Below are positions 3,989-58,000 of a stretch of 64,000 nucleotides of DNA, piece by piece (positions within the stretch are counted from its first letter, which is position 1; each line of letters opens with the position of its first letter). This DNA is from an uncultured Candidatus Saccharimonas sp. (GTDB taxonomy: Bacteria > Patescibacteriota > Saccharimonadia > Saccharimonadales > AQU-01), in assembly GCA_943358095.1 (NCBI GenBank), contig CALRGT010000002.1:32782-96781 (forward strand). The letters are read 5' to 3'. A program made the translations under genes and the position numbers. Below the pieces are notes generated by a model. The model was not told the origin of the DNA, ran no database searches, and saw only the letters and a program-made list of their open reading frames with translations.

Positions 3989-4004
3989 TAAGAAACAATT
4001 TTTA

Positions 4005-7999: not shown

Positions 8000-10900
8000 A
8001 TGTCTATAATTCCAGTGGTACTCTTTGTGGTGTTTGTGATAATTCCAGCAATTGGGAGTATTTGGTATTCTCATTCTAAAAAAGTGTTTCGTGAGCAGAA
8101 GAACTTCGAGAGAGGGCTAAAGATTGTGCCGATGCTTATACACCTGCCGCCACTTAGTGAAGATAATCACGAAAACGGCCGCGATGTGCGTGATTTGATT
8201 GATGAGAATATATCTAGGTCGCAAGTTCTTTATGGCATTATTGCTAGCACTATCCAGAAAGCATCGTTCAAGAATAAGTTTTACGGACAGCGTCATTTTG
8301 GCTTTGAGATCATAGCGAGCAAGGGAATTGTTAGCTTTTACGCCGCTGTGCCGATAGCGTTAGTTGAGGTCGTGAAGCAGGCTGTAAACAGTGCTTATCC
8401 GACCGCTCAGCTAGAAGAGGTTGCTGAGCACAATATTTTTAGTCCAATTGGCAAGATTAGTGGGACTGCTGGCGGTGAACTTACCCTAAAAGAGAATTTT
8501 GCTTATCCAATTGCTACCTATCAAGAGCTAAAGCGTGACGCCATGCAGTCGATTTTGAACTCGTTGTCTACGTTAGATAAGGACGACGGAGCCGGGATTC
8601 AGCTATTGATGAGGCCGGCGCATGACGATTGGCGTAAGCGGGCGCAATCGGTTTCTTCTGAGAAGCGTGGTGGCACTGAAAGTAAAGCTAAGTTTAGCGG
8701 CTCGACATTAGATTGGTTTCGTCAGGTTCCAGCAGCTTTATTTTGGCCGCCAGAGGACCGTGGAGTGGGTGGAGAAAAGTCCCAGTCCAAACCGTTATCA
8801 GCTCTTGATCAGCAGATAGTTGACGCTATAGATGATAAGACAAGGCACCCTGGATTTGAAGTTTTGATTCGGGTTATAGCATCTTCTAATAATCCTCAAA
8901 AGGCGCAAGCTATTAAGAGCAGCATGGTGGCTGCGTTTTCTTTATTTGATGCGCCTGGCAAGAACGGCTTCAAATACACTGACGCCGCAGATATCGAAAG
9001 TTTTGCCACAGCATTTATTATGAGATTTTTCCCGCAAGAGAATAATAAGAACATTCTAAACTCTGTTGAGTTAGCTACACTATTTCACTTCCCAGATCAC
9101 AAGAATATACCTACTACTCAGCTTGCTCGTCAGGCCTCCAAGCAGGTTGACGGTCCACGTAATATGCCCGAAAACGGCCTGATGCTTGGCTACAATGTGT
9201 TTCGCGGTGTCAAGAAGCCTATACGGTTGAGTCTAGAGGACCGCCGCCGCCATATGTATGTGGTTGGACAGACGGGTACCGGAAAGTCGGTATTCCTAGA
9301 AAATTTGGCACTTCAAGACATGCTTGCTGGTAGAGGATTCGCTTTTGTTGATCCTCACGGCGACACAGTAGACAGCCTGATGTCTATGGTTCCGAAGGAA
9401 CGCACAGAGGATATTGTCTACTTCAACCCATCCGACATGGATTTCCCAATGGGTCTAAACCTGTTTGAGTTCTACGCTCCTGAGCAGAAGGACTTTTTGA
9501 TTCAAGAAGCCATTAACATGCTTTATAAACTGTATGACCCTCAAAAGCAGGGAATTATTGGGCCTAGATTTGAGCGTATATTCACAAATAGCGCCTTGCT
9601 ATTAATGGCTGATCCTAAGGGCGGAACCTTCGTCGATATTCCAAAACTACTGATTGATTCAGAGTTTATGAAGGCTAAATTGCAATATGTGACCGATCGT
9701 AACGTGTTAGATTTCTGGACCAAAGAGTGGCCGAACTCACAGAAGTCAAACGAGGCAGGTGAGGTCACAAGCTGGGTTGTCAGTAAGTTCGGTGCGTTTT
9801 TGTCTAACGAGATGATGCGTAATATCATCGGTCAGCAGAAGAGCTCATTTAACCTAAGAGACATTATGGATAATAAAAAGATACTATTCGTTAACTTGTC
9901 TAAGGGGCGTACAGGAGAGTTGAACTCAAAACTGTTGGGTATGATTTTTGTTATGAAATTCCAAGCTGCCGCCATGAGCCGAGCCGATATTCCAGAGGCT
10001 GATAGACAAGATTTTTGTCTATATGTTGATGAGTTCCAGAACTTTGCCACAGATTCTTTTGCCACAATTATGTCAGAGGCCAGAAAGTATCACCTTAACT
10101 TGATCGTTGCCAACCAATTCACTACTCAGTTAACAGATGAGATTCGTGACGCCGTATTTGGTAACGTTGGTACGACGGTGGCATTCCGCGTAGGTTCTGA
10201 TGCTGATGCCGACAGTTTGAGTAAGAAGTTTTCGCCAATTTTTGAACGCGAAGATGTGTTGCGAATTCCAAACTTTAACACTATCTCTCAGATGTTAATT
10301 GGCGGTATTCCGACACAATCCTTCAGCATGGCTACTTTGCCTCCATTAGGATCAGCTAACCCAGAATTAGGCAAGGCGCTCAGACAATTGTCGGCAGCAA
10401 AATTTGGACGAGCCAAGGATCAAATCGAGAAAGAAATATTTGCCAGACTTAAGACTGTAGAAGCTCCAACTCCTGTTGGTGGTCAAAGGCCAGCTAGTCC
10501 AGCCCCTACCGCGCCTCCAAGGGCGCCTGGAGCTCCTGCGCCATCGTTTTTGGATGATTGGATGACTAAGCGCCAAACAGTTACTCCTGCAGGCGCTGGG
10601 CAGCCTGCCAAGCAATCTGTTGCGCCAATAGCCAGTCAACCTCAACCGCCGACAGCACCAACACCATTACCGGTAGCACCTGTGGCCAGCAACAGTCCAG
10701 TCGTTGCAGCCGATAATATTCCAGCCGCCACCCCAGACACTGCGACTATTTCACCACAAATTGATCGCCATGAATCCAAATTCATAGCTACTGATCAAGA
10801 TGATAGTGAGTCTTTAACCCGTGACAGCGCCCACAAGCTTCCTTTTACAGAGACTACCCATCCGGCCACTGAAACGACTAATATCTCCAGTTCTCAGCTT

Positions 10901-11645: not shown

Positions 11646-13100
11646 TCAGTAAGACTCCCCGCCGTCATGATGGTCGGCTTTAATTATTGCTAGTTCGCTC
11701 AATATTAAGCGTGATCGAGCGAAGAAGTAGCCGGCCAAGACCAGTAATACGAAGCAAATAGCTAAGCTGCCTTTGACGCCAGTGTTGGGTAGTATCCTAG
11801 TCGTTATTTCGATGTTTTTGATGATTGAGGGAGGTAGTTTTACTGTTACAGACGCCCCATAAGTATTTGTCATTTTTAAGTCATAATGATTTGGATCACT
11901 AGACGAAACAGGCGTCGCAGGAAGAGTGTTCTTTATCTTGACGCTAAAATTCTTGACCAAGGTTTTGCCACCTCCAATATCCTCGGCTGGCCAAATAATA
12001 ACATTTTTATTGATTATTCCGCCGCTAGTCTGTGAGATGTCGGAGTAGTCTAGTATGTCGCTTATATTTTCTTGGACAACGAAGTTTTTGATGGTTGAGT
12101 CGCCATCGTTGGTGACGGATAGTGAATAGGTGAGTACATCATTAGGCTTAGCGGTTGATCCGTTGGCGTTATTTAGCTTGCTGGTGTCGTTTTTGACCGT
12201 CTTACCGAGTCTCAGGCAGGATGTTTTGTCTTCACGCGTCTGCGAGCTCTTACATGGCTTACAGTCGCTACTGCTGGCTGTGAGTGAGCTGTTATATATG
12301 CAAGACTCGAAACAGCTGCTGGAGTTTTTGGCGTAAGCCTCTTTGTTTTTATAAGGGCAGGGTTCGAAACAAGCGACATTATTGGATTTTATATTAGATT
12401 TACCTTTAACCGGACAAGCCTCGTAACATTCAGAACTAGTCTTGGCTAGGTTTTTTTTGCTGGCAATAGGGCAGGGCTCGGAGCATTTAGGGTCGGTAGA
12501 TAACAGAGACGCAGACCATTCGCATTTTGCTTTTGGAGTAGGTGGAATGCCGACGAATGTCAGGCCACCACCACAATCTTTGACTATATAAAACTTCTGA
12601 CCGTCTTTGTTGGTGACGAGAAGGGCATCGTGCTTGGTTGAGCCGTTGTCGTAGTCAGATAATTTACGCAACCAGTAAGTTTTTGCCTTTATGTTCAGTG
12701 GAGTTTCGCCAACTTTACCGTAAGCTAGGCGGCCGGTGGTGTAGAGTTCGCCGTGAAAGTCTTTGGAGTCGAGCTTAACATCTTTGGCATTCGCCAAGTC
12801 AGCACAATCAATATTAAAGTTCGCCAGAATATCAGCGTAGTCAGAGCTACTAGAGCGGCAGTTGTTGGTAGCATCTTCAGCCGATCTTACGCCTCCGTTA
12901 ATCAAGTCATTATTGGACTGCGCTAATGATGCTTGGGGAGGGCTAATTAAGGCGAACATCTGTATAAACACGGTAAGGATGATCAAGATAAATCCGGTTC
13001 GGCGCACAATAGTCTCCCTACGAAGACGCTTGGCATAAAAAGCTACCTCATCAATAAGGCCAGGACTATAAGGTAAATTAGATAGCAACTTCTTGAACAT
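11646..13100 (-). CDS. Sortase-type (LPNTG) cell-wall-anchored surface protein with Cys-rich repeats
   Basis: The 484-aa ORF has an N-terminal signal/TM (GFILIILTVFIQMFALI). It carries repeated C-x-E-(P/A/S)-C motifs (CSEPCP, CYEACP, CFEPCP, CFESC) and a beta-rich segment (NDVLTYSLSVTNDGDSTIKNF). Near the C-terminus is LPNTG followed by a hydrophobic stretch and ARSR. Confidence 0.7.
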   Translation of the reverse strand: MFKKLLSNLPYSPGLIDEVAFYAKRLRRETIVRRTGFILIILTVFIQMFALISPPQASLAQSNNDLINGGVRSAEDATNNCRSSSSDYADILANFNIDCADLANAKDVKLDSKDFHGELYTTGRLAYGKVGETPLNIKAKTYWLRKLSDYDNGSTKHDALLVTNKDGQKFYIVKDCGGGLTFVGIPPTPKAKCEWSASLLSTDPKCSEPCPIASKKNLAKTSSECYEACPVKGKSNIKSNNVACFEPCPYKNKEAYAKNSSSCFESCIYNSSLTASSSDCKPCKSSQTREDKTSCLRLGKTVKNDTSKLNNANGSTAKPNDVLTYSLSVTNDGDSTIKNFVVQENISDILDYSDISQTSGGIINKNVIIWPAEDIGGGKTLVKNFSVKIKNTLPATPVSSSDPNHYDLKMTNTYGASVTVKLPPSIIKNIEITTRILPNTGVKGSLAICFVLLVLAGYFFARSRLILSELAIIKADHHDGGESY

Positions 13101-13305: not shown

Positions 13306-15309
<2,004 letters not shown>

Positions 15310-15314
15310 GCCGC

Positions 15315-15441
15315 CAATTTGTCATTGAACATTTGGCATTTGGCATTTATTTGTCATTGAACATTGATCAGACGGCTGGTCTTTTGGAGCTAAATGGTAA
15401 ATGCGAAATAAATGATAAATGTAGAATGGTAAATGGTAAAT
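15315..15441. repeat. CATTT/CAATG-rich hairpin repeat element, copy E1 (gyrB-gyrA spacer)
   Basis: The left arm is caatttgtcattgaacatttggcatttggcatttatttgtcattgaacattg. The right arm is taaatggtaaatgcgaaataaatgataaatgtagaatggtaaatggtaaat, its imperfect reverse complement. It shares blocks with E2-E5 (catttattt / aaataaatg, aatggtaaatggtaaat). Confidence 0.8.
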
Positions 15442-20124: not shown

Positions 20125-20176
20125 AAATACATTAACAATTAGTGAGTCACGATTGATGGGCGATTAGCTCAGCTGG
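20125..20176 (+). repeat. 52-bp direct repeat, copy 1 (leader plus first 19 nt of tRNA-Ile); copy 2 at 20249-20300
   Basis: The sequence aaatacattaacaattagtgagtcacgattgatgggcgattagctcagctgg occurs identically at 20125-20176 and 20249-20300. Copy 1 continues into non-tRNA sequence, leaving a truncated tRNA-Ile 5' fragment at 20158-20176. Confidence 0.9.
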
Positions 20177-20281
20177 CGCAGCTCGCTGCAAAATTAAGTA
20201 ATTGCGCGATTCGCGCTCTAGCGCTGAGCTACAAATTCAGTAAGCGGTAAATACATTAACAATTAGTGAGTCACGATTGAT

Positions 20282-20358
20282 GGGCGATTAGCTCAGCTGG
20301 TTAGAGCGCGTCACTGATAATGACGAGGTCGGAGGTTCGAGTCCCTCATCGCCCACCA
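20282..20358 (+). tRNA. tRNA-Ile (GAU), CCA encoded
   Basis: The acceptor stem pairs GGGCGAT with ATCGCCC. It has the D-arm AGCTCAGCTGGTTAGAGC, anticodon loop CTGATAA, T-arm GGAGGTTCGAGTCCCTC, and ends ACCA. Confidence 0.95.
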
Positions 20359-20411: not shown

Positions 20412-20488
20412 GGGGACATAGCTCAGTTGGCTAGAGCACCGCCTTTGCAAGGCGGGGGTCCAGGGTTCGAGTCCCTGTGTCTCCACCA
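20412..20488 (+). tRNA. tRNA-Ala (UGC), CCA encoded
   Basis: The acceptor stem pairs GGGGACA with TGTCTCC and includes the G3:U70 pair. The anticodon loop is TTTGCAA, the T-arm is CAGGGTTCGAGTCCCTG, and it ends ACCA. Confidence 0.95.
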
Positions 20489-20497
20489 AAATAAGGG

Positions 20498-20525
20498 CCC
20501 GTCCGCAAGGACGGGTTTTTGTTTT
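20498..20525 (+). terminator. Intrinsic terminator after tRNA-Ala, inside the rRNA locus
   Basis: CCCGTCC (20498-20504), GCAA loop, GGACGGG (20509-20515), then TTTTTGTTTT. Confidence 0.7.
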
Positions 20526-20566
20526 GGTGTAATGTCTAGATTCGAACCCTGGACCGCGACAATTAC
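20526..20566 (-). other. Inverted, degenerate copy of the tRNA-Ala 3' half (tRNA-like minihelix ending ACCA)
   Basis: The minus strand reads gtaattgtcgcggtccagggttcgaatctagacattacacca. Its 14 nt ggtccagggttcga are identical to tRNA-Ala 20457-20470. The T-stem pairing is broken, so this is not a functional tRNA. Confidence 0.6.
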
Positions 20567-20638
20567 GTGTAGCCCGGCGATAAACTTAAAAATTATAGTA
20601 GAAAAAAATAAACGCAAAGAGTATCGTAGTATGTATCT

Positions 20639-20957: not shown

Positions 20958-21843
20958 TGTTTAGCTACTTGAGTTTAGGCACGAGGCAGGGAAAAAAGCA
21001 GTGAAAGCTTCCAGCGTAAACTCAAGCATCCGAGATCATTTCAGTCTAATGTATGGGTGTGGTGAGAGTTTTGTAACTTAACAATTTAACCGACAAAATA
21101 AGTTTTTTAGAATCGTTTATGAATTCGTGATTGGCACGAAGGAGTAGACGAACATTAATGACAAACGGCTATTGGTTAATACCAATAACTAGTCAATTGC
21201 ACGAACAGCGATGATCGAGGCTTCGGCCAAAGTCATTGCTAACGTAAAAAGTTACATAAGCGCACACAAGGAATGCCTTGACGTAAGATACCGATGAAGG
21301 ACGTAGTAGACTGCGAAAAGCTTCGGGGAGCTGTCTAACAAGCTTTGAACCGAAGATATCCGAATGGGGAAACCTATGGCGAGTAATGTCGTCATGCACT
21401 TGTCTGAATATATAGGACGAGAGAGCGGTAACCAGGGGAACTGAAACATCTTAGTACCCTGAGGAAGAGAAAGTAAACAACGATTCCGGTAGTAGTGGCG
21501 AGCGAACCCGGAAGAGCCCAAACCTTTTAAGTTTCCGTCTAGCAATAGATGGATAAGTTGGTAGACGAATATTTAAAAGGGGTTGTGACACACAAACAAT
21601 CCAAGCAGACTGTTTGAGCAATCGAACAATCTGTTTGGCCCGCATGACCTACCATTGTCATGCATAAGGTAAAAAATTTGCGAAGCGAGCAGAAGGATCT
21701 GGAAAGTTCCGCCAAAGACGGTGAAAGCCCGGTATGCCAAGTTTCGCAAACCTTATTATTTGTGTTGTCGAGTAGGACGGGGCACGTGAAATCCTGTCTG
21801 AATCTGGGTCGACCACGACCCAAGGCTAAATATATCTTACGAT

Positions 21844-21874: not shown

Positions 21875-23099
21875 TAAAAGAACCCCGGAAGGGGAGTGAA
21901 ATAGATCCTGAAATTGTGTGCGTACAAGGAGTAGGAGCCGGCTTGTCCGGTGACTGCGTGCTTTTTGTAGAACGATCCAGCGAGTTAATTGTCATGGCAA
22001 GCTTAAGCCATTTGGCGGAGGCGCAGTGAAAGCGAGGCTTAATTAGGCCGACTTCAGTCATGATGATTAGACCCGAAACCGAGTGACCTAACCATGGGCA
22101 GGATGAAGCGCAGGTAAAACTGCGTGGAGGTCCGAACCGTAGCGAATTGCAACACGCCCGGATGACCTGTGGTTAGTGGTGAAATGCTAATCGAACTCGG
22201 AGATAGCTGGTTCTCCTCGAAATAGCTTTAGGGCTAGCGTCGTACGGTAACAGATAGGGGTAGAGCTCTGTTTCGGACTGGGGGTCGTAAGACTACCCAC
22301 CCTTGACAAACTACGAATACTATCTGCGGAACTACGGCAGTCAGAACGGCGGGGCTAAGCTCGCCGCTCGAAAGGGAAACAGCCCAGATCGCCAGCTAAG
22401 GTCCCTAAATATACACTCAGTGGGAAACGAGGTGAGATTTCTCGAACAACTAGGATGTTGGCTTAGAAGCAGCCATTCATTTAAAGAGTGCGTAACAGCT
22501 CACTAGTCAAGAGATCTTGCGCGGAAAATGTAACGGGGCTCAAGTGTATTACCGAAGCTGCGAACTCGATCATACCTTCGGGTATGGTTGATTGGTAGAG
22601 GAGCGTTGATATTGCATCGAAGTCGAACTGCGAGGTTCGGTGGAGCGGTATCAAGTGAGAATGCTGGAATGAGTAACCATAAGGCAGGTGAGAATCCTGC
22701 CCGCCGAAAGAGCAAGGTTTCCTGGGCCACGATAATCGTCCCAGGGTTAGTCGGTCCTAAGTCGAGGCGAGTAGCGTAGACGATGGACAACGGGTTAATA
22801 TTCCCGTACTAGCTTTGTATTGTTTGGAAGTGCGCGGCATATTAGTAGGAGCGGGTTCATGGTTATACCCGTCTAAGCCACAGAAATAGTGGTTAACGAG
22901 AGATCTTAATTGATTGATTCCTGTGAAAGCGCTGACCAGAAAAGCTTCCAAGCTTATGTACATAGTTATCCGTACCGCAAACCGACACAGGTGCTCAGGT
23001 CGAGTAGACCAAAGGCGTACGAGTGATTCTTCGTTAAGGAACTCGGCAATACAGCGACCGTAACTTCGGGATAAGGTCCGCCCCGTCACAGTGTTTATC

Positions 23100-23257
23100 A
23101 CTGTGACTTGTAACGCCAGTTTTCTTTTTAAAACGGAAACAACAGAAACCGAGATTAGTTTTTAACTTCTGATCTTTGGCCTGTATAAACGAGCAATTTT
23201 TGAGAATTAGAAAGAAAGCTGACCTCTATAAGCACGTAACGTGGTAGTTACTGTGAC
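23100..23257 (+). mobile_element. 150-nt insertion in a 23S hairpin, bounded by an 8-bp direct repeat ACTGTGAC (23100-23107 and 23250-23257)
   Basis: Deleting 23108-23257 joins gccccgtcacagtg-tttat-cactgtgac to ggggc. That gives a perfect 14-bp stem with a 5-nt loop. The insert has no ORF and no similarity to the CATTT family. Confidence 0.5.
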
Positions 23258-23709
23258 GGGGCCGCAGCTAAAGAACCCATGCAACTGTTTACCAAAAACA
23301 CAGGTCTGTGCTAACACGAAAGTGGATGTATACGGGCTGACGCCTGCCCGGTGCTGGAAGGTTAAGGGGATGGCTTTACGGTCTGAACTGAAGCCCCAGT
23401 GAACGGCGGCGGTAACTATAACCGTCCTAAGGTAGCGAAATTCCTTGTCAGGTAAGTTCTGACCTGCACGAATGGCGTAATGATATGGGTACTGTCTCAA
23501 CGAAGAGCTCGGTGAAAGTGCATTGACGGTAAAGATGCCGTCTGTCCGCAGCAGGACGAAAAGACCCCGTGCAGCTTTACTACAGCTTGACATTGAACCC
23601 GGTTGTAACATGTGTAGGATAGGTGGGAGACTTTGAGATCTCGACGCTAGTCGAGAAGGAGTCATCAGTGAAATACCACCCTTGTTATAATCTTGTTCTC
23701 ACGGGAACC

Positions 23710-23887
23710 TCAATTTGCGAAGCAAATTGAATTTAGCATTTAACATTGATGCATTGACGCATTAATTTAACATTGACCATTTTTCATTGAAGCTCCAGGG
23801 CTACAATGACCAAATGTCACATGGATAAATTAATGACAAAATGATAAATGGTAAATGGTAAATTCTGACATTTGATTCTCAAATTCA
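23710..23887 (+). repeat. CATTT/CAATG-rich hairpin repeat element, copy E2, inserted in the apical loop of a 23S domain-V-proximal hairpin
   Basis: The 178-nt insert is closed by GGGAACC (23703-23709) pairing with GGTTCCC (23888-23894). The left arm atttagcatttaacattgatgcattgacgcattaatttaacattgaccatttttcattgaagct is about 85 percent identical to intergenic copy E3. E. coli has only a short loop at the equivalent site. Confidence 0.8.
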
Positions 23888-24173
23888 GGTTCCCGGACCG
23901 TGTCTGGTGGGTAGTTTAACTGGGGCGGTTGCCTCCTAAAGAGTAGCGGAGGCGTTCAAAGGTTGGCTAGGTTCGGATGGAAATCGAATCGATAGTGCAT
24001 ACGCATAAGCCAGCTTGACTGTGAGACCTACAAGTCAAACAGGCACGAAAGTGGGAGTAAGTTTTCCGCTGTCCATACATTCGTATAAGAGAGTGGTATC
24101 GGCAGCGCTATCGGATAAAAGTTACGCCGGGGATAACAGGCTTATCGCGCCCAATAGTTCACATAGACGGCGC

Positions 24174-24294: not shown

Positions 24295-24789
24295 TTATAT
24301 CCGCTGTGGACGATAGGAAATTTGAGAGAATTTGCCCCTAGTACGAGAGGACCGGGGTGAACGCACCGCTGGTGTACCAGTTGTTCTACCAAGAGCACCG
24401 CTGGGTAGCTAAGTGCGGACCAGATAAGCGCTGAAAGCATATTAAGCGCGAAACTGACCTCAAGATTAGATTTCCCTATGAGGGCCGTGAAAGACGATCA
24501 CGTTGATAGGCGCAAGGTGGAAGTACAGTAATGTATGGAGCCGAAGCGTACTAATCGCCCCATCGACTTTTTACGACTATGAGAGATGATCCGTGCCATT
24601 TATGGGACGGGGACTCTCTCGTAGGTAGTGCGTTGACTAGTTATTGGTGAGAATCACCACATAGACAACGTTTGTCATATTTCTTCTGAACTTATTTGTT
24701 GGCACCATACCATTGGCATCGAACCAAGGTTTCAAAGGCCCACCGCCAGATCGTATATATCTGCGCAAAGTCGCCTTTCAAGCCTTTAA

Positions 24790-25070: not shown

Positions 25071-25253
25071 TCTAGAGAGCGTTTACGAATAAGTAATTAA
25101 CACTGTTAAGCGGTTTTGTGAACGAGTGCAGCTTGGTAGGAGGTTGAGGACCGGAGCATGAGACGTACTTGTTGGTACGTCTCGCCTACGGACCGGAAAC
25201 ATCCTGCCAAGATGTGCCGTTCACGGAAGCGTGCAGTAAAAGGAGAAGATACG

Positions 25254-25451
25254 ATGGCTGGAACAAAGAACGGCGGCGCAGCCGCTGCAAAGACTAACAA
25301 ATCTAAGTACGGTGCAGATTTTTATGCAAAAATCGGCGCTATGGGCGGTAAGAAAGGTCACACTGGTGGCTTTTACGCTAACCGTGACCTAGCTCGTATT
25401 GCTGGTGCTAAAGGTGGACGCATTAGTCGTCGTACTAAAGCTTCAGTTTAA
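25254..25451 (+). CDS. KGG-repeat general stress protein (YciG/GsiB-like), 65 aa
   Basis: The ORF track starts at 25158. I prefer ATG 25254, preceded by AAAGGAGAAG. The product MAGTKNGGAAAAKTNKSKYGADFYAKIGAMGGKKGHTGGFYANRDLARIAGAKGGRISRR has repeated (K)GG motifs typical of that family, as far as I recall. Confidence 0.6.
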   Translation: MAGTKNGGAAAAKTNKSKYGADFYAKIGAMGGKKGHTGGFYANRDLARIAGAKGGRISRRTKASV

Positions 25452-25505: not shown

Positions 25506-25597
25506 ATTTATCATTTAACATTGACGCATTAACTTAACATTTATCATTTTTCATTGTAGCTTCAATGACCAAATGACAAATGCTCAATGTTAAATTG
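25506..25597. repeat. CATTT/CAATG-rich hairpin repeat element, copy E3 (short right arm)
   Basis: The sequence is atttatcatttaacattgacgcattaacttaacatttatcatttttcattgtagcttcaatgaccaaatgacaaatgctcaatgttaaatt. The apex cattg-tagctt-caatg is identical to E4. The stop codon of the minus-strand gene (25590-25592) lies in its right arm. Confidence 0.8.
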
Positions 25598-26054
25598 CTT
25601 TTGCGAGTTTTCGGTAGGGGCGACACATTCGTGAGCTAGAAACATTCCAATTTGTCCCGCAATTAAAGCAGGCATAGGTTCTGCTGTTGGTTTGTAGGCT
25701 GCAATTCGTGCAGGTTGGGCAGGTACTTCGCTGATAAAGCCAATCGCGGTAAGTGTCTAGGCAATCCTGAATGTGGTCTGGGTCGATTGTATAATTGAGT
25801 GATTCGGCAAGCTGTTTGGCTTTTTCCCAGGCCGACACCTCGAGTGTTAGTAGCTGAAAGTCAGAGCTGTAGTCATTGTGTTCAAGCAGGGCATGACCAA
25901 CTTCGTGTAATAGCGACCAAGGGGCTACGACGTCGTCATCTGGTGATATTTTATAGATGACATGATTAGTTTTTGGCGACCACGAAAAGGTAGCTCCGGG
26001 TTTGAAATTAATGAAGGGGTAGCTGGCCTTGAGTTTTATTAGTAACTTTTCCAT
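25590..26054 (-). CDS. Putative zinc metallopeptidase (HEXXH, ImmA/IrrE-like) with C-terminal Cys4 zinc ribbon
   Basis: The 154-aa ORF has WSLLHEVGHALLEH (HEXXH) and CPTCTNC...CFNCG. Confidence 0.5.
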   Translation of the reverse strand: MEKLLIKLKASYPFINFKPGATFSWSPKTNHVIYKISPDDDVVAPWSLLHEVGHALLEHNDYSSDFQLLTLEVSAWEKAKQLAESLNYTIDPDHIQDCLDTYRDWLYQRSTCPTCTNCSLQTNSRTYACFNCGTNWNVSSSRMCRPYRKLAKAI

Positions 26055-34704: not shown

Positions 34705-34830
34705 CTATTTATCATTTAGCATTTGTCATTTTGACATTTATTTGTCAGGTGGCATTTGGTCATTGTAGCTTCAATGTAAAATGGTCAATGTCAAAATAAA
34801 TGATCAATGTTAAATGACAAATGATCAATC
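34705..34830. repeat. CATTT/CAATG-rich hairpin repeat element, copy E4 (priA-def spacer)
   Basis: The left arm is atttatcatttagcatttgtcattttgacatttatttgtcaggtggcatttggtcattg. The apex is tagctt. The right arm is caatgtaaaatggtcaatgtcaaaataaatgatcaatgttaaatgacaaatgatcaatc. The priA stop codon (34829-34831) overlaps its end. Confidence 0.85.
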
Positions 34831-36793
34831 AGAGCAAATTAGAGGGGTCGATATCGTAACTGCAGTTTGCCGGTAGCTCCTTGATGATGTCCACTAGACT
34901 GGCTCGGTTCTTGGCCTTGATGACTGCCTGCCAGCGGTATTCGCCTGCGGTCTTTTCGTAGAAGCTTGGGCTTGGTCCAATAATCTTAACTGGTAGCCGA
35001 AGTTGGCGTAAGCTGTCCACTAATTCACTAGCTGCTTTTTGCGCACCATTGACTGTTTTTCGGCTAATAGTTAGCTTGAGTAGATAGCAAAACGGCGGAA
35101 ACATAAATTGTTGGCGTTCCTTAATTTCTGATTGATAAAAGCTCGGCCAATCCTTGGTGATTGCAGCAATAATCGCCGGGCTTTCGGGCTGATACGTCTG
35201 TATTACGGCAGCGCCCTTACGGTGACCACGCGCGATTCGACCAATAACTTGAGTAAGTAATTGATAAGTTCGTTCTGTGGCAGTGTAGTCGGGGAAGCTT
35301 AGCGAAGAATCGGCAGAAACAACTCCGACAAAGCTAAGCTTGGGCAGATCCAGGCCTTTTACCAGCATTTGAGTACCAACTAGTATGTCGACTTTGCCCT
35401 CACTCACAGAGGCGTAATGTTGCTCGAACCGATCAGCCTTCAAATTATCCGTATCGAATCTTTGTAGTCTAGCCTTTGGAAAAAGTCTTTCCAGCGCGTC
35501 TATTAACGACTTGGTGCCTAAGCTGCGGAAGATAATGTCTGTCGACCCACAACCGCCAGCTTTAACAGGGCAGGATGATGGCGTGCGATCTTTAAATCCG
35601 CAAGTGTGGCATCGCATTTGATGATTATCGCCATGGTAAGTCAGCGGTAGGTCACAGTTCGGGCAGGTTGCTTGCCAGCCACAGCTTTGACAAAGAACCA
35701 ATCTAGCAGTACCGCGACGATTAAGAAATATCAATGATTGTTCGCCGTTATTGAGAGCGTTCTGGACGCCGTCCAATAGTTCGTTAGATAAATATCCATG
35801 TCGACTAAAATGATTTTTGTCGCGGGCTAACACTACTGTTATTTCAGGTGCGCTAACCTCGTCGCTAGTGGCAAGTTTGGTCATTCGTATGATCTTTGCT
35901 TTTTTGGTTTCGGCAATATAATAGTCGGTGATATTTGGCGTAGCAGAGCCTAAAATTGCTATACAGCCGTGTAGTTGTGCGAGCTTGCTGGCAACGCGCC
36001 GCGCATCATAGTGCGGAGTTTGATCTTGTTTATAGGCGCCCTCGTGAGACTCATCAACTACAACTAATCCAAGACTTCGAAACGGAATAAATAACGCCGA
36101 TCGAGGTCCTATCGCGACAATTGGTTGGTCGGCATATAAAACTTTCGTCCAGGCATTGCGTCTTTCGGCGATAGTTAAATTAGAGTGAAACAATATGACT
36201 TGGCCCTGAAAGGTCTGCTCAAACTCCCTCGTTAGTTGCGGCGTTAAGCTAATTTCTGGGGTAAGAATCAGGACATCCTTGCCTTGGCTTATTTGCTGTT
36301 TGGCCAGCTCTAGATATAGCCGAGTTTTGCCCGTGCCAGTATCGCCGTGTAATAGGACGGTCGACCCAGGAGTTGTGCTATTGATCGTATTTAAGGCTTC
36401 CGTTTGTTCGCCAGTCAACTTAGGTAGTGCGGATGCGTCGACGGTCTTAATCTCGGTATTTTTTGGCTTTCTAGGTATTTGCAATAATCCAGAAGGAATG
36501 AATTGGGCGGCAATATAACTTTGTGGGGCAGGGTAGTATTTGGCCAGCCAGTCCATAAGCTCAAGGCTAGTAGCGGGTAGTGGTTTGTCGATTGTAGTGC
36601 GCGTAATTGGCTTTAATTTAAAGCTTGGTTTACCAGTAGCTTCTACAACGACGCCGCCAGTTTGTTTATTTTGCAAAGGAACTTCAACTAATTGCCCCGG
36701 TTTTATGACTTCATCAAATGAGTAAGTTAACGGTTCGCTACCCCTGTAACGTTGACTAGACACCAGCACCTTGTAGTAATACATGTCTACCAT
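34829..36793 (-). CDS. priA: Primosomal protein N' (replication restart helicase PriA)
   Basis: The 654-aa ORF has Walker A LLHGDTGTGKT, DESHE, a Cys-rich zinc-binding insert (CQSCGWQATCPNCD...CHTCG) and helicase C-terminal motifs. Confidence 0.92.
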   Translation of the reverse strand: MVDMYYYKVLVSSQRYRGSEPLTYSFDEVIKPGQLVEVPLQNKQTGGVVVEATGKPSFKLKPITRTTIDKPLPATSLELMDWLAKYYPAPQSYIAAQFIPSGLLQIPRKPKNTEIKTVDASALPKLTGEQTEALNTINSTTPGSTVLLHGDTGTGKTRLYLELAKQQISQGKDVLILTPEISLTPQLTREFEQTFQGQVILFHSNLTIAERRNAWTKVLYADQPIVAIGPRSALFIPFRSLGLVVVDESHEGAYKQDQTPHYDARRVASKLAQLHGCIAILGSATPNITDYYIAETKKAKIIRMTKLATSDEVSAPEITVVLARDKNHFSRHGYLSNELLDGVQNALNNGEQSLIFLNRRGTARLVLCQSCGWQATCPNCDLPLTYHGDNHQMRCHTCGFKDRTPSSCPVKAGGCGSTDIIFRSLGTKSLIDALERLFPKARLQRFDTDNLKADRFEQHYASVSEGKVDILVGTQMLVKGLDLPKLSFVGVVSADSSLSFPDYTATERTYQLLTQVIGRIARGHRKGAAVIQTYQPESPAIIAAITKDWPSFYQSEIKERQQFMFPPFCYLLKLTISRKTVNGAQKAASELVDSLRQLRLPVKIIGPSPSFYEKTAGEYRWQAVIKAKNRASLVDIIKELPANCSYDIDPSNLL

Positions 36794-39439: not shown

Positions 39440-40669
39440 ATGCGCGAAGGCACTACTCAATCATTTGTTGGTCTAGATATTGGCACCAGTGCCGTAAGGT
39501 GCGTTATTGGCATGCTCGACCAAAATAGCGACGGTAAGCTGTCTATCATCGGTCATGGTAGTGCTCAGAATGTCGGTATGCGCAAAGGTGCTGTCGTACA
39601 TGTTGATGATGTAGTTGAGGCCGTAACAGGCGCAATCGCCGAAGCAGAAAGAGTATCGGGAACTCATGTTGGCAGCGTCACGGTTAATGTAAACGGCGGT
39701 CATGTACTTGGTATTAACTCACGCGGAGTCATCGCTATTAGCACTTCCAACCGCGATATAACTCAAGACGATCGTTTACGAGTTGAAGAAGCAGCCACAA
39801 TCGTCAAATTACCTCCTAACAGAGAGATTATCCAAGTATTTGCTAAGAATTATCGCCTCGATGGTCAAGATAACATCAAAGATCCTGTCGGTATGCAAGG
39901 TGTTAGGCTAGAAGTCGACACTCATATTGTCACTGCCAGCACTCCTAATCTTCGTAATCTCGATTTAGTCTTAGAAAAGGCACACTTAACGCCTAACCAT
40001 CACACCGTATCTAGCCTAGCTTCAGCCGAAGCAGTACTTAATCGTCAACAAAAAGAGTCAGGCACGGTATTGATTGATATCGGTGCCGGTACAACCAACA
40101 TAGTCGTGCTAGAGGACGGGGAAGTCCAGCACATTGCTGTCTTGCCAATCGGTGGCATTCACGTCACAAACGACTTAGCAATTGGCCTGAAGACCGACTT
40201 AGACATCGCCGAAGCCGTAAAACTAGAACACGCCAACTTAACTGGCGTCTTGAGCAAGAAGCGGTCCGGCGTAACCGTAAACAAAGTTCGCCACGAATTC
40301 GACCCAGAAGATATACAGATGATAGTAGAGGCTCGCATCGAAGAGCTATTAGAATATGTCGACAAAGAACTCAAGAAGATCAGCCGGTCCCGTAAGTTGC
40401 CTGGCGGTGCAGTATTAGTTGGCGGCACCTCCAAGATACCTGGTATCGCCGAATTCACGAAAGAAAAGTTACAAATAGCCGCTAGAGTCGGCAAGCTACA
40501 AACAATTGGCGGCCTGCAAGACACAGTCGAAGACCCAGCTTACTACACAGCTGTCGGTCTAGTTATCCTAGATATGTTGCTCGCTCCTCAAAACGACTCG
40601 ATGATTAACGGGCAAAACAGCGGCGTTTTTGGCATGGTCGAAGGTTTGTTCAAACGATTCAAACGCTAA
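39440..40669 (+). CDS. ftsA: Cell division protein FtsA
   Basis: It has the actin-like ATPase motifs VGLDIGTSAVR and VLIDIGAGTTN, plus GGTSKIPGI. I prefer ATG 39440, 7 nt after TGg-TATACT (39427-39432), over TTG 39434. Confidence 0.92.
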   Translation: MREGTTQSFVGLDIGTSAVRCVIGMLDQNSDGKLSIIGHGSAQNVGMRKGAVVHVDDVVEAVTGAIAEAERVSGTHVGSVTVNVNGGHVLGINSRGVIAISTSNRDITQDDRLRVEEAATIVKLPPNREIIQVFAKNYRLDGQDNIKDPVGMQGVRLEVDTHIVTASTPNLRNLDLVLEKAHLTPNHHTVSSLASAEAVLNRQQKESGTVLIDIGAGTTNIVVLEDGEVQHIAVLPIGGIHVTNDLAIGLKTDLDIAEAVKLEHANLTGVLSKKRSGVTVNKVRHEFDPEDIQMIVEARIEELLEYVDKELKKISRSRKLPGGAVLVGGTSKIPGIAEFTKEKLQIAARVGKLQTIGGLQDTVEDPAYYTAVGLVILDMLLAPQNDSMINGQNSGVFGMVEGLFKRFKR

Positions 40670-40671: not shown

Positions 40672-40811
40672 TACAGCTTCAATTTCACATTTTACATTGA
40701 CCATTTGTCATTTATTTGGACATTTAACATTGATCATTGGCGCTACACCTCAATGACAAATGACCAAATGACTAAATAAATGTTCAATGCTAAATGACCA
40801 AATGCTAAATT
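40672..40811. repeat. CATTT/CAATG-rich hairpin repeat element, copy E5 (ftsA-ftsZ spacer)
   Basis: The left arm is tttcacattttacattgaccatttgtcatttatttggacatttaacattgatcattg. The apex is gcgctacacct. The right arm is caatgacaaatgaccaaatgactaaataaatgttcaatgctaaatgaccaaatgctaaat. It starts 2 nt after the ftsA stop. Confidence 0.85.
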
Positions 40812-52070: not shown

Positions 52071-55000
52071 ATGCAAGATTCAACTAACACACAGCCAAAT
52101 CTCACCCCTGTTGTTACCCCTAATACGGGCTCTATTGAAGGCATAACTCCGGTACAAAATATACAAAATTCACCAGTTTATCCTGAACAAAAAATAGATA
52201 ACACCGTTGTTTCTTCGCTGACTTCAGTTGCTAGTCCTGATGTGCAGGTTCAAGAAGCCTTTATGGATCAGAGTTCGCTTGAGAATTCCGGTCTACTTGA
52301 CGCTGTAGACACTGGATCACTGATCAACCAAGATAATTACGCTACACCGAAGGCAAAGCGTCGTTCTGCCAAAACTCCTTTCATCATCACTGGTCTAACT
52401 CTTGTGGTAGCTCTCATCATTGCTGGCCTTGGTAGCTATTTTGCCAAGCGCACTACTGTCGCCGATAAGAGTGTCTCACAGCAGGTTGTTGAGCAGTCAG
52501 TCGACTCCGCACTCCTACGTGTTGACCCTCTAAGCCTGCTTTCTCCTGTTGGTGTCATAGGTCAACAACTTCTTGTGAATGGTAATGCCGACTTCACAGG
52601 TAACATAACCGCCAATAACTTCTTTGGTAACGGTTCTGGTATTACCGACCTAAAGGCCGCTAACTGTGATGATTGTGTCATGCTTCAGCCAACCACTCCT
52701 GGCTTGGCTCAGGTTGGAGGCATCAATGTTGCGGGTAATGGTTTGTTCGGCAAACTAGGGGTGGGCACTCAGAATCCTGCCTATACCGTTGATGTTTTGG
52801 GTGACATAAACGCCAGCTCAAGTCTTAAAGTTAACGGTGTTACTGTTTGTACTGTTGCTGGTTGTGGAGCTACAAGTGGTCTAACCTCTGCTGTTACTCA
52901 ACTAGACGGACTTGTCGGCAATCTGCTAATAAGCAATACATCTGGTATTGGCACAACGATTACCATCAACGACGCCTCCACAACAGGTAAGGGAATAGCT
53001 CAGTTTAGCGCTACTAACTTCTTAGTTTCTGGCGGTACAGTCAACACTATCCAAGACATTACAAACGCTTCTATCCCAACTTTTGGTGGAATTATCTTGA
53101 ACGGTAACGTCACTCTCGGTACTACTGGTACTGTCTTTAGCAATAACCTGAGTCAGACTAGTGCTGGCAATGCTGTTGTTGTTAACGCCGCTGCCGATCA
53201 AATCACTTTCCAGGCTAATGGCCGAACTTTCCAGTTCCCGAGCACTGGGGTAGCTAATCAAACCATCTGTACTACTGGTATTACCTGTGTAGCAGGTGGT
53301 GGTCAGGCGATTTTGCTGGCACCCGGCAGCGCCCAAACAGACACCTCTGTAGATGTCTCCATATTCGTAAACGATACTGGGGGCGGTAATCTTTTACAAC
53401 TCCAGACTGCTGGAGCCGATAAGTTTGTCGTCGCTAACAACGGCGACACTTCTATAAATGCCATCCTTAAGGTTAATACCATTACACCTACAGCATCCTT
53501 TACAGTTGGCTCTAGTACTCAGACTATTACTCTTCAGGGTGATGCCAGCTCGACCTTTAATGCAACTGGCGGTGGTTTTACTTCAAGTCTTGGTTTTACT
53601 TCGCCAACCGCTAATAGGACAATTACCATCCCTAACGCTAGTGGTACAGTTGCGGTCAGCGCCAGTGGTAATATTAGCCTTAGCGCCAGCGGTAATGTAA
53701 CTTTCACCGGCCTATTACCGATCGGGAGCGGCGGTACGAACTCTTCAACTGCCGGAGGTGCTCTCACCAATCTAGGTGCTGCCGCTAGCGGTGCTAACTC
53801 CGACATCACTAGCACATCAGCATTAGCTACCGCTACTGGACTCAACACCATCACTCCGACTGGTGCTTTGACTGTTGGTGCTGTATCTCAGTCCATAACT
53901 CTACAGGGTTCTACTGCCACATTGACCAGTAATGGTGCAGGCAATGACATTACGCTAACTTCGGCCGACGCCATTATTTTGTCAGCTGTCGGTAATGTTA
54001 CATTCTCTGGATTTAATTGTACGACCTTTTCAAACGGCGGTACGCTGACGACTGACGCCAGCGGCAATGTAACTTGTTCTAACGATGATGGTGGAGCTAC
54101 TCCAACTCTGCAAACTACCTATAACGCTTCTACTAATCCAGAACTAACCGTCGACGCTACTAGAGGTGCTTTGACTGTTCGAGACAACTCTACTCCAATC
54201 GCCGCTAATCTGTTAGAAGTTCAAAATAACAGTGGTAGCACGACTTACTTTAGGGTTGACGCTAACGGCATTGAAACTACAGGCACGACCACCAGTACCG
54301 GCAATATTAACTCTAGTGGCGGCGTAATCCAGACTAATAGCGTGACTCGTATCGATAACTCCGGCAACTTAACTAACATTGGTACAATTAACAGCCAGAC
54401 TATCTCATCATCAGCCAACTTTACTGGCACAGTATCTGTCGCTACTAGCCTAACATCACCACTGTTAAGCAGTGTCGGAGCGCTAACTATTACGCCAGGA
54501 GGTGCTTTCGTAGTTGGCGCTACCAGCCAAAGCCTATCGCTTCAGGGTAACGGTTCTACTACTCTTAGCTCCACTAGCGGTGGCTTTACTAACACCCTAG
54601 GATTTACTACACCAGCTGGCTCCAACAAGTCCATCACCATCCCTAACGCTAGTGGTACAGTTGCGGTCAGCGCCAGTGGTAATATTAGTCTCAGCGTTAG
54701 CGGAGATATTACCTTCACCGGCCTATTACCGATCGCTAACGGCGGCACGAACTCTTCTACTGCCGGAGGTGCTCTCACCAATCTAGGTGCTGCTGCCAGC
54801 GGTGCAAACTCTGACATAATTAGCACATCAGCATTAGCCACCGCTACTGGACTCAACACCATCACTCCGACTGGTGCTTTGACTGTTGGCGCTACTAGCC
54901 AGGCCTTTACATTGCAGGGTAATGCTAGCTCGATAATTACTGCCACAGGTGGTGGGTTTTCTACAACAGTTGGCTTTTCTGGAACGCCTACCGGTGGAGT

Positions 55001-58000
55001 AGCTTACAATTTTGATCGTTCTGCTCTAGCTGGAACTTATACAATCTGTACAACAGTAGGTAACTGTGTGGGTGCTGGCGGTGGTGTTACTACTGCCGGA
55101 GGAACGGCAGGAAAACTAGCTAAGTTCACTGCAGGCAGCGTCATAGCTGATTCAATCATTAGTGAGTCTGGCGTTATTGTTACTGTTGCTGGTGAAGCAG
55201 TTCTTCAAGGCTCCGGCGGTTTAACTCTAGGTCAAGCATCAACAGCCACAGGTAAAATAGTCTTTAACAACATCGGTAACGCAAACACCATCACTCTTCA
55301 AAGTGGCAATCCTGGCTCAAATGTGACCTTAACTCTTCCAATCACTGCTGGAGCTAACGGTGATTGTATAACCAGTAACGGTTCAGGAGTTCTAAGCTTT
55401 ACTGCCTGTACCGGCGGACCAGGTGGCGGTGTTACTAGCGTAGACGGCCTAATAGGAGTTTTGACTATTGCTAATTCGAGTGGTTCTCTAAGTACGATAA
55501 CTATCGATGACGCCACAACCTCAAGCAAGGGTATAGCCCAGTTCAACAGCACAAACTTCACAGCCAGTAGCGGTACCATCAACACTATCCAGAACATCGA
55601 CTCAACAGCTACTCCTAGCTTTGCTGGTCTAAGCGTTACGACTGCAACAGGGCTAACATTAGGTACTGGAACGGCTGCAGGTAAATTAGTTGTACGTGAC
55701 GGTATCTCGGCATTTGGTAGCACCTTCCAGACAACCACTCTTACTGGCAATCAAGTGATTACCATTCCTAACGCTGGTGGTACCTTAGCAGTCAGCGCCA
55801 GCGGTAACATTAGTCTCAGCGCCAGCGGAGATATTACCTTCACAGGCCTATTACCGATCGCTAATGGCGGTACGAACTCTTCTACTGCCGGAGGTGCACT
55901 CACCAATCTAGGTGCTGCCGCAAGCGGTGCTAACTCCGACATCACTAGCCTTAGTGGCCTTACCACTGCGCTATCTGTTGCTCAAGGTGGCACAGCATTG
56001 GCCACAATTCCAACAAATGGTCAGTTATTGATAGGTAACGGCACTAACTACACACTGGCTGGACTCAGCGGTACCGGTATAACTGTTACTAACGGAGCCG
56101 GCAGTATTGGCTTGGCAACTATTTATGGCTCAGGCTCGAACACGGCCGCACAAGGCAACGTAACCTTTACTTGCCCTAGTGGAACAGGCAACTTATCTGG
56201 TACCGGTAACGCCATAACTATCGGTAGCGGTGGAACATGTAACAGCTTAACTGTAGTAAATAATCCAACATTCTCTGGACTTGTAACCGGCCAAGCTGGA
56301 CTAGTTGTAACAAACGGTGGATCGCTATCTACACAAAAGGGAACTGACTATGCCACGACTGGCGTGACGAGCGACGTAAACTTGGGTGCTGCTAGTCTTT
56401 ATCGACTCACTGGTATAAGTGCTCAAACCATCACCGGCTTTAGTGGTGGCGTCGATGGCCGTATCCTGACATTAATAAACGCTGGTTCAGCCACTGCCGT
56501 ATTGAGCAACTTAACCACCTCAGCTGCTGGTAATCAGATTAGTACTGGTTCTGGTAGTGATGTAAATCTACCAATTGGTAGCTCTATTTCGTTGATTTAT
56601 GATTCGGCCGCTAGTCTATGGCGCGTCAATGGTAGTCCTGCAGGCAGTGGCTTGTCTGGGGTTACTAACGACACTAACGTTACTGGAGTGTTAGCTTCTA
56701 ATGTACTAACACTTGGCTGGACAGGCACATTAGCGGTTGGGCGTGGCGGCCTAGGCGTCGGCAGCCTTACTAGTAACGGAATTCTCTACGGTAATGGTAG
56801 TAGCGCTGTTCAGGCCACTGCATCGGCTGCAAACAGTATTTTAATAACCGACGGTAGTAGTGTGCCAGCGCTTAGTCAGACATTACCTACTTTAGTGCAA
56901 GGTAATATAACTTCAACGGGCGCACTAAACTCAGGATCAATTACCTCTGGCTTCGGAGTTATAGATAACGGCTCCGACACAATTACTACAACCGGTACAA
57001 TTGGTACCGCCGGCACCACTACCTTCACCGGTAATACCGCAACATTCTCTGGTGGTGTTATAGCACCAAGTCTAGAGCGAGCCACGGCTGGCACCTTAAC
57101 TATAGGCAGCACATCCAACACTACTGCCATAAGTGAGGGTCGTACTGGAATTACAACGACCAATGCTGGTGCGCTTACAGTTTCGGAAGCCTTTAGTGCG
57201 AACCTCGGCGCAACAGTAACAGGCGGAGCAGTTACGCTGAACTCAACAGGCTCGTCTAACTTCAACACAGACATTAATACTGGCACATCTACAGGAGCTA
57301 TAAACATTGGTAACTCATTATCTGGAGCAATTAGTCTTCAGAGTAGTTCTTATGTGTCGGTGGGTGCTAGTGACACAACAGGTACGCTGTTGATACTTGA
57401 TACCAAGACAGACGCATCTGATCCTAGCGGTTCAAACGGCGGTATGTACTACAACTCTAGCCTAGGCAAGTTCCGTTGTTATGAGAACAGTGTTTGGAAA
57501 GACTGCGGCACATCAACTCCAACTAGCTTGCAAGGAGCATACACTCAGTCAGCCGGCGCCAGCCCATCCATAACCCTGACCAATGCCTTCGGAGGAATTA
57601 ATATCGTTGACGGCACAACTCCAGTAGCCGGTAACCTATTCTCCATCAAGAATAACGCCGCTACCGCCACTTACTTCGGCATAACCTCTACAGGTTTATT
57701 GATCCAAGATGCTTCTGCTACTAACGCTCTAGCGTTTGATTCGTCGACTAAAACCTTAAAGGTCTACGGTACGAGTGGCGCTGGATATGCTGGTGTTAGC
57801 TATACTGATGCTACCAGTACGGCTATTTTTGCCGCTTCTTCTGGCGGCGTATCACAACTTGGTAACGGTAACGGTAATGTTACTATTTCGCTTGGTGGTG
57901 CAACTGACGCGCTTAACTTCGACAAGACATATACACCTATTGCCGCCTACAGTTCGTCTGATTTCAATGTTATCCGCAACCTGACTGGTACATCCTTCGC

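Follow-up and report, generated by a model that had tools for sequence, protein, structure and literature searches.

The DNA analysed here is a 64-kb stretch (the window) from an uncultured Candidatus Saccharimonas sp., part of the 114-kb metagenome contig ENA ERZ27280309 k141_2341726, which carries an rRNA operon as well as the gene pairs gyrB-gyrA, priA-def and ftsA-ftsZ. An earlier note, made from the letters of this DNA, had described five related CATTT/CAATG-rich elements in the spacers of these genes, elsewhere in the region and within the 23S rRNA gene. A density scan for stretches in which four or more CATT[T/G] per 60 nt precede four or more [C/A]AATG per 60 nt recovered CATT[T/G] arrays with mirrored [C/A]AATG arrays at exactly five sites of the window, the elements E1 to E5. 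The three-unit pattern CATTKNNCATTKNNCATTK occurred 14 times, compared to 0.01 occurrences expected from shuffles, and all 14 were situated inside E1-E5. A repeat finder independently joined the copies (families D8, D10-D13 and D17; inverted pairs I1, I2, I5 and I6), and a profile hidden Markov model (HMM) built from them matched only E1-E5 in the window, with nhmmer E values ranging from 5e-15 to 1e-27 (7e-24 for E1, 5e-25 for E2, 5e-15 for E3, 2e-26 for E4 and 1e-27 for E5). All four approaches confirm five related elements at the places described, for which refined coordinates are given below. They are a lineage-specific family of non-coding, AT-rich, imperfect-palindrome repeats, dispersed and fast-evolving, which we refer to as the CATT family. 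The copies and the sites connected with them are the following:

15315-15441, no strand assigned: E1, between the gyrB stop codon (15307-15309) and the gyrA start (15433 or 15448)
21943-21949, plus strand: empty site A, apical loop of 23S rRNA helix 25, about E. coli 545-551
23710-23730, plus strand: basal stem of the 23S rRNA helix-79 extension, 5' half (CAATTTGCGAAGCAAATTGA), outside the repeat proper
23731-23863, plus strand: E2, distal part of the 23S rRNA helix-79 extension
23864-23890, plus strand: basal stem of the helix-79 extension, 3' half, pairing with 23710-23730 in the fold
24660-24668, plus strand: empty site B, 9 nt (CATAGACAA) in the 23S-5S spacer
25506-25597, no strand assigned: E3, copy with a shortened right arm
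34705-34830, no strand assigned: E4 (allele A), between the priA stop codon (34829-34831, minus strand) and the def start (34657)
40680-40811, no strand assigned: E5, between the ftsA stop codon (40667-40669) and the ~110-nt ftsZ leader/promoter region

The elements have a G+C content of 26-32% as compared to the window average of 45% and consist of short repeats, and a scan of unrelated viral contigs with a four-unit pattern returned generic heptad satellites, which are common there and in many cases derive from giant viruses. These properties would fit chance AT-rich low complexity without homology between the sites, a reading that, if true, would have refuted the proposal of the earlier note, as the note itself stated. 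It is already refuted, with practically no probability left to it, by the count of the three-unit pattern and the nhmmer scores, by a full-length alignment of the copies with 72-98% identity and identical stretches of 16-23 nt common to them, and by the absence of similar clusters from 1.26 Mb of other loci, except close relatives and one weak case. The copies thus share sequence and not mere composition, and what is dispersed here is a real homologous hairpin family. The apex CATTGTAGCTTCAATG is identical in E3 and E4, as had been reported, and the left arms of E2 and E3, for which about 85% identity apart from an 8-nt indel had been given, are 81-89% identical, the window copy of E3 being devoid of one 8-nt unit. 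None of the repeats matched an Rfam family. Sliding-window folding energy was discarded as a finder of similar loci, since the AT-rich hairpins were inconspicuous and mostly G+C-rich structures were found.

A full-length copy consists of about seven left-arm units, a short apex and mirrored AATG units. Each left-arm unit is a CATT core with 3-4 variable bases, one longer unit being an 11-mer; the consensus reads ATTTAnCATTTAACATTGAnCATTGAnGCATTAATTTAACATTTAnCATTTnTCATTG, followed by a loop and the mirror image ending in AAATGnTAAAT. Unit spacing is 7, 8, 11 or 12 nt and varies within and between copies. We aligned 15 sequences over their full length, covering all seven known sites (E1-E5, A and B) except E3 and including strain variants. 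With one sequence per site and E3 left out, 39 of the 56 core columns were invariant, compared to 11 of the 67 spacer columns, and nearly all invariant columns belonged to the CATT cores of the left arm and the AATG cores of the right arm. Mean column identity was 0.92 in cores and 0.71 in spacers (p about 1e-9), a contrast that is somewhat circular because the cores partly drive the alignment. The 2-4-nt spacers are freely variable and not complementary between the arms, and the fifth position of the unit (T or G) did not covary with its mirror position (36 G-A and 7 T-C mismatches vs 9 G-C pairs). Each predicted hairpin therefore amounts to a series of 4-5-bp helices with small internal loops in between.

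Every element folds into a long hairpin, as had been proposed, albeit an imperfect one, with 29-71 pairs. Compared to dinucleotide shuffles, the fold z-scores ranged from -2.4 for E1 (minimum free energy, MFE, -34.5 kcal/mol) to -8.8 for E2 with its basal stem, the strongest of the five. The better-folding strand was the sense strand for E1 and the antisense strand for E4 and E5, and both strands of E2 folded equally well; folding thus has no consistent preference for the transcribed strand. RNAalifold returned almost no consensus structure for the family alignment because the repeated units allow several pairing registers.

Two subfamilies can be distinguished. The E2-type subfamily comprises E2, E3 and the copies at sites A and B with 85-98% mutual identity: E2 is 95-98% identical to the E2 of other strains and 87-95% identical to the site A and B copies, and E3, which differs between strains by unit-level indels, is 85-91% identical to E2-type copies. 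The second subfamily includes E1, which has the CATTTATTTGT core, E4 allele A and E5, with about 80% mutual identity. Its members are 72-81% identical to the full-length E2-type copies and score higher against the short E3; E1 is 72-81% identical to the other copies.

DNA near-identical to the window was found in the Candidatus Saccharibacteria/Saccharimonas metagenome-assembled genomes (MAGs) JBAXJI01, CALREK01 and JAPLYV01 and in many lake-type metagenome assemblies, while the next closest PriA in the collection of species-representative genomes is only 57% identical. An HMM search brought up additional copies on four metagenome contigs that are independent of one another and belong to the same species. 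Sites A and B, which are empty in the window and in the strains L096 and L097, hold copies in strains with 99.7% identical 23S rRNA, and four independent assemblies agree on the junctions. At site B, 9 nt are replaced by 143 nt with an E2-like copy, 92-95% identical to E2, in strains L154, L189, L119 and L137, which looks like a simple gain or loss. At site A, a 172-nt cassette consisting of an E2-like copy between two small hairpins replaces the loop and upper stem of helix 25 in L154 and L189. Comparison of filled and empty versions revealed no target-site duplication at either site, a few target bases being replaced instead. Likewise, no matching flanks were present at the five window copies, and no conserved target motif beside the insertions was seen by eye at these copies and at sites A and B. 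The family changes location within the species, and the two extra copies in other strains settle a point on which the earlier note had staked its proposal, namely whether further copies and insertion polymorphism exist. The data support that rRNA and intergenic copies form one family with strain-level presence and absence. We consider it probable that the hairpin family is mobile, that it is selfish or near-neutral, and that it is tolerated behind stop codons and at the tips of rRNA helices.

The earlier note had placed one copy inside the 23S gene, which is correct; it had missed that this copy caps an extended helix. The Rfam alignment shows the E2 region as 173 nt inserted into the terminal loop of the helix following the L1 stalk, and alignment to E. 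coli 23S rRNA located it at about 2180-2214, in helix 79. The first and last ~20 nt of the insertion form the basal stem. This helix-79 copy was present in all strains seen, and the helix-25 copy only in L154 and L189. A metagenome scan with the helix-79 basal stem (CAATTTGCRRAGCAAATTGA) gave 104 matching stretches; among the 80 loci listed, 75 represented an unrelated small hairpin common in other bacteria and five were 23S contigs of the same species, which carry the extra copies. On one further contig (L143, 3870-3965), the hairpin CAATTTGCAAAGCAAATTGA, equal to the base of the helix-79 extension, is situated beside 7-nt units CTGACCA/CTGATTA just after a terminator. The 23S gene measures 3331 nt as compared to a model of 2925 nt, and it has two more insertions relative to E. 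coli that are unrelated to the CATT family (window 21527-21687 and 23083-23259; ~144 nt near E. coli 276-293 and ~138 nt near E. coli 1709-1748).

In a related genome (L006, MAG BP4.bin56) with ~90% identical 23S rRNA, the basal stem is conserved with 2 substitutions in its 5' half, while the distal part is built of different 8-nt units (TAGTNNNN) and cannot be aligned with E2 of the window. At a distance of 3.5 kb lies an intergenic copy with 88% identity to this distal part across 84 nt that include the apex; this dispersed copy was found by an ungapped hairpin finder which had missed the window elements. Thus, in two species the helix-79 tip matches the genome's own intergenic hairpin family. 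The priA-def spacer of L006 harbours a hairpin of CATGTAG units, a third unit type unlike its own helix-79 extension, so that three unit types occur in this one genome. In the Saccharibacteria MAG JAYVRB01 (L008) four composite elements are present within 14 kb (3946-4060, 5500-5892, 9230-9480 and 11936-12220), on a stretch without rRNA gene. They consist of a long direct TAGGAAG/ATAAAGT heptad array, then AAATG-type units and then a G+C-rich terminal hairpin, and match the window HMM weakly; two of them are situated in the ftsA-ftsZ spacer and the spacer downstream of priA, as are E5 and E4. The priA-def spacers of eight related species are short and devoid of an element, and three further species, reached via homologues of a ROK kinase, had no elements in ~90 kb; in these three the rRNA operon is not beside the ROK-kinase gene. 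Short periodic units in a hairpin are a recurrent theme, with unit sequences that turn over between lineages and a patchy distribution.

The clear periodic and inverted arrangement, with cores far more conserved than spacers and spacers that are not complementary between the arms, would also be expected if the elements acted at the DNA level as protein-binding arrays, the 7-8-bp CATT units, seven in each orientation, being putative binding sites. Heptad arrays bound by ribbon-helix-helix partition or repressor proteins are similarly arranged. We regard this as very unlikely: unit spacing varies, copies reside inside the 23S gene, copies with one shortened arm persist, and the units of other species are quite different, up to three types in L006; nor was a candidate protein found.

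All close strains carry E2, E3, E4 and E5, which are the most variable parts of the region. Nucleotide diversity in element and flanks amounted to 0.066 vs 0.020 for E5, 0.058 vs 0.019 for E3 and 0.247 vs 0.061 for E4, a 3- to 4-fold ratio, and E2 reached 0.026 compared to 0.002 in the rest of the 23S gene (13-fold). For E2, E3 and E5 all indel columns fell inside the element. The indels have the size of units or end at unit boundaries. The 8-nt unit gone from the window copy of E3 is kept in strain L001, E5 has lost four left-arm units through a 33-nt deletion in L110 and L113, and in two other strains it contains a 106-nt tandem duplication. Since truncated copies, such as E3 (right arm) and E5 of L110 and L113 (left arm), persist, the intact hairpin is not essential. 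Replication slippage would account for such loss, gain and duplication of units.

In strains L002, L098, L100, L106 and L109 the priA-def spacer holds an E2-like allele B of E4, 79-88% identical to E2-type copies. Alleles A and B are deeply different members of the same family; flank identity reaches 98% in the closest strain (L002), and both alleles encode the same last PriA residues with different codons. Two such deep alleles between near-identical flanks point to recombination between strains; alleles may have moved by homologous recombination, and sequence may also be exchanged among copies. In most substitution variants hairpin stability was retained better than under an equal number of random mutations: among the eight plus-strand tests, the fraction of random mutants that folded as well was 0.76 for E4 of L110 and 0.003-0.16 for the other seven.

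The placement of the copies at stop codons was as the earlier note had it. E1 begins 5 nt past the gyrB stop codon and E5 within 10 nt of that of ftsA; the priA stop codon (34829-34831) overlaps the last base of E4. E3 directly follows the canonical intrinsic terminator of a plus-strand KGG-repeat gene, and its end contains the stop codon (25590-25592) of a convergent minus-strand open reading frame (ORF, 25590-26054). A candidate def promoter (34694-34665) is situated outside E4, and by eye a -10-like TATAAT precedes ftsZ downstream of E5. Across E1, the gene caller of the source assembly placed a 45-aa ORF (window 15304-15441; L114 6202-6339), which is most likely an artefact because of the many ATG triplets in the right arm. 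That no element has a U-tract, as had been stated, is only roughly right: a T-rich stretch follows E5, and no site passed the intrinsic-terminator scan. We rejected the idea of intrinsic (Rho-independent) terminators, which have a short G+C-rich stem with a U-tract behind it, as the scan detected no terminator-like site at E1, E4 or E5. Promoter and terminator scans inside the elements yielded nothing above chance.

The earlier note had brought up roles as mRNA 3'-end stabilisers, RNase III substrates or protein-binding arrays, which remain putative. Every copy lies in a transcribed region, four of them have one end at a stop codon, and E4 and E5 would come to stand at mRNA 3' ends, given the candidate def promoter and the ftsZ TATAAT downstream of them. 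Together with the folding kept better than under random mutation, this would be consistent with selected cis-acting hairpins, acting as 3'-end decay barriers, terminators without U-tract or RNase III sites that uncouple cistrons. However, the better-folding strand differs between copies, neither covariation at the fifth unit position nor an appreciable RNAalifold consensus was observed, arm-truncated copies persist, most related species have no element in the same spacers, and the terminator scan was passed by no site. Under the same reading, which appears rather unlikely to us as a whole, the rRNA copies would be true intervening sequences excised by RNase III, leaving a fragmented 23S rRNA. 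In its favour, helix 25 is a classical intervening-sequence site, and intervening sequences are stem-loops that RNase III cuts (PMC4990558). No RNase III gene was present in the stretch examined.

As to the preferred reading of a selfish or near-neutral mobile family, copies appear at new sites without target-site duplication, and the family is mobile within the species now or was so recently. In every case the occupied sites are places where little harm is to be expected from a long hairpin: directly behind a stop codon or terminator and ahead of the next promoter, or in the apical loops of the surface 23S rRNA helices 25 and 79. Tolerance is the presumable reason for this placement. When transcribed, a copy would form a long AU-rich imperfect hairpin and, within 23S rRNA, an extension similar to an expansion segment or intervening sequence. 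A role as a hairpin at mRNA 3' ends, if any, would be secondary.

Several observations weigh against this reading. No transposase or other copying mechanism linked to the family was found in the ~80 kb of DNA read from this genome, in which the 10 kb upstream and 6 kb downstream of the window are devoid of copies. The presence of E2-E5 in all close strains makes these copies old within the species. At site A, the difference extends to the entire helix-25 stem, and the copy is accompanied by two small flanking hairpins, so that the polymorphism may represent a recombined cassette or a deletion in the window strain rather than a clean insertion. Moreover, core conservation and better-than-random folding show some constraint, which a purely neutral element would not need, and therefore leave room for a structural function. 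Finally, all seven sites fall within 25.5 kb around the rRNA operon, at most ~16 kb from it, and the other ~55 kb examined contain no site; this clustering is as readily explained by local gene conversion from rDNA as by transposition and leaves room for rDNA as the source.

If rRNA were the source, the 23S extensions at helices 79 and 25 would be the master copies, grown by compensatory slippage, and the intergenic copies would derive from rDNA by ectopic recombination or gene conversion nearby, with no independent mobile element involved. Besides the clustering, the species-specific sequence shared by helix-79 extension and intergenic copy in two species speaks for this, as do GCAAATTGA in E4 allele B, which matches part of the conserved helix-79 basal stem, and the high homogeneity of the E2-type subfamily. 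On the other hand, the subfamily of E1, E4 allele A and E5 has no rRNA copy, the priA-def unit type of L006 differs from its own helix-79 extension, and L008 has its four copies without an rRNA gene on the same stretch. The data would fit copying in either direction. On balance we judge an origin in rDNA to be quite improbable and retain the mobile family as the explanation to be preferred.

To place the family among known systems, we compared it with several classes of repeats. REP sequences are G+C-rich imperfect palindromes of 20-40 bp, one end of which is tagged by GTAG or CGTC (PMC3733652). They are found in hundreds of copies, their RAYT gene is flanked by them, and REPINs are hairpins of ~100 nt (PMC3733652, PMC3116915, PMC2817692). 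The CATT family resembles REP, BIME and REPIN elements, as the earlier note had suggested, in being palindromic and extragenic, in having no target-site duplication and in often standing just after stop codons. However, it is AT-rich and untagged and was seen in few copies (five in ~80 kb and two sites elsewhere), one to two of which reside inside the 23S gene. We rejected this identity given the element size of 92-133 nt, the G+C content of 26-32% and the missing GTAG/CGTC end tag: the ends read ATTTA.../...TAAAT or CAATTT..., and GTAGC is confined to the apex loop of E3 and E4.

A link to RAYT proteins was rejected as well. About 460 nt beyond the right window end, a Y1 gene (L093, 4619-5236) encodes a RAYT-like protein of 205 aa that reached 35.7 bits with Pfam PF01797 and 41.7 bits with NCBIfam REP_Tyr_transpos, below the cut-off of 80. 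This gene is flanked by three copies of a G+C-rich hairpin, CCAAGGTGAGACCTTGG, which is unrelated to the CATT family and of which no copies were found away from the Y1 gene in the DNA fetched; no CATTK cluster is present within 6 kb of the gene. A similar Y1 gene of 204 aa occurs in another species (L221, L222).

Likewise, the likeness to Correia- or ERIC-type elements, also brought up in the earlier note, did not hold up. Taken as a whole, the element forms an imperfect inverted repeat 92-133 nt in length, in agreement with the terminal inverted repeats and the 50-500 bp of transposable elements of the miniature inverted-repeat type (MITEs), and with Correia, ERIC, RUP and Rickettsia palindromic elements (PMC3184786, PMC2229807, PMC10969869) it has in common a size of 90-180 bp, the location in transcribed spacers, the polymorphism between strains and the long hairpin formed when transcribed. 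Rickettsia palindromic elements even tolerate insertion inside the genes of a reduced genome. Nevertheless, there is no target-site duplication at the two filled/empty site pairs and none matching at the window copies, the 80 kb examined yielded no parent insertion sequence whose ends match, and the periodicity of units with their rapid gain and loss is not known from those families, with which no sequence similarity exists. We therefore excluded a classical MITE. [quoted passage not shown]

With a 23S copy on the helix-79 extension, the closest bacterial relatives in kind are the 23S intervening sequences. These are stem-loops sporadic among strains at helices 9, 25 and 45 that are cut by RNase III (PMC4990558), with hosts such as Salmonella, Yersinia, Campylobacter, Leptospira and Coxiella (PMC4990558, PMC2801512). 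In both cases a non-coding, apparently dispensable, extended stem-loop replaces an apical loop of the 23S rRNA, here at helix 25 in L154 and L189 and at helix 79 in all strains, and the helix-25 copy is also sporadic among strains. The CATT family differs in that it is intergenic as well and in that helix 79 is not among the classical sites in PMC4990558. In mitochondria, repetitive hairpin elements are found between genes and in the variable regions of rnl (PMC2800124), and double-hairpin elements and yeast GC clusters offer a further organelle comparison (PMC4478555). They too are short hairpin repeats, patchy among relatives, often without target duplications and with no known function, and their rRNA copies are reported to stay in the transcript (PMC2800124, PMC4478555). 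The placement in spacers and rRNA variable regions is the same in the CATT family, although they belong to organelle genomes, are unrelated in sequence and usually shorter (8-18-bp stems) and have no 7-8-nt units; we mean an analogy and claim no homology. By such analogy, 23S intervening sequences and mitochondrial repetitive hairpin elements appear to be the closest counterparts of the CATT family.

A further parallel concerns the expansion segments of eukaryotic rRNA. In eukaryotes, helices 25 and 79 carry ES7 and ES31. The same two helix tips are extended, with short repeated motifs on both arms and length changes by gain and loss of units. The growth of expansion segments has been described by a model of compensatory slippage. 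In contrast to the bacterial copies, they are G+C-rich and fixed within a species and are not known to derive from dispersed elements as copies.

Palindromic repeat families are known already, as are 23S intervening sequences and the hairpin elements of mitochondrial rnl. Full-text literature searches gave no report of such a family in Saccharibacteria, in agreement with what the earlier note had supposed, and in the literature retrieved no bacterial intervening sequence was described as a member of a dispersed intergenic family. The small genomes of Saccharibacteria are thought to be poor in repetitive DNA; a repeat family is now documented there, and as a practical consequence 23S length varies between strains. 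Where bacterial 23S intervening sequences and rRNA expansion segments come from is a long-standing question, and they are usually called sporadic insertions of unknown source. One family that is both intergenic and present on helices 25 and 79, and that varies between strains, links bacterial rRNA insertions to a dispersed mobile repeat and makes their origin testable with RNA data. The organism appears to have a single rRNA operon, so that every ribosome of a strain would carry the change. It is possible, and we suggest it only tentatively, that a mobile hairpin family here creates or remodels ribosomal expansion segments that are retained in the mature ribosome. If so, the family would provide a living example of the birth of expansion segments and a direct origin of bacterial intervening sequences from a dispersed repeat, and ribosomes would differ between strains with 99.7% identical 23S rRNA.

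Further structured or repetitive regions were noted in the same DNA. Upstream of the 23S gene, a perfect 52-nt direct repeat (20125-20176 and 20249-20300) includes the first 19 nt of tRNA-Ile, and after tRNA-Ala a hairpin of -82 kcal/mol (20430-20575) contains an inverted copy of the tRNA 3' part that pairs with the tRNA; both suggest partial tRNA duplications in the 16S-23S spacer. A single long G+C-rich hairpin of 120 nt (25110-25230; -70.5 kcal/mol, z = -7.3; no Rfam match) immediately precedes a 65-aa KGG-repeat stress-protein-like gene (25254-25451) and may be a structured leader. Between infC and a Lon-like gene, a 545-nt nested inverted repeat (3465-4009; MFE -270 kcal/mol) without Rfam match has full or partial copies elsewhere in other strains, 76-96% identical and sometimes inverted, namely after the 5S gene in L096, L189 and L119 and near the region upstream of priA in L001, L002, L106 and L109. 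Parts of it also occur in another species (L223, L224), and it looks like a second, G+C-richer mobile palindromic element or a structured RNA. Finally, about 13 tandem, diverged 153-nt coding repeats (60995-63677) are part of a 1479-aa Kelch/beta-propeller protein, whose gene adjoins a 2343-aa ORF with ~1-kb internal repeats (52071-59102).

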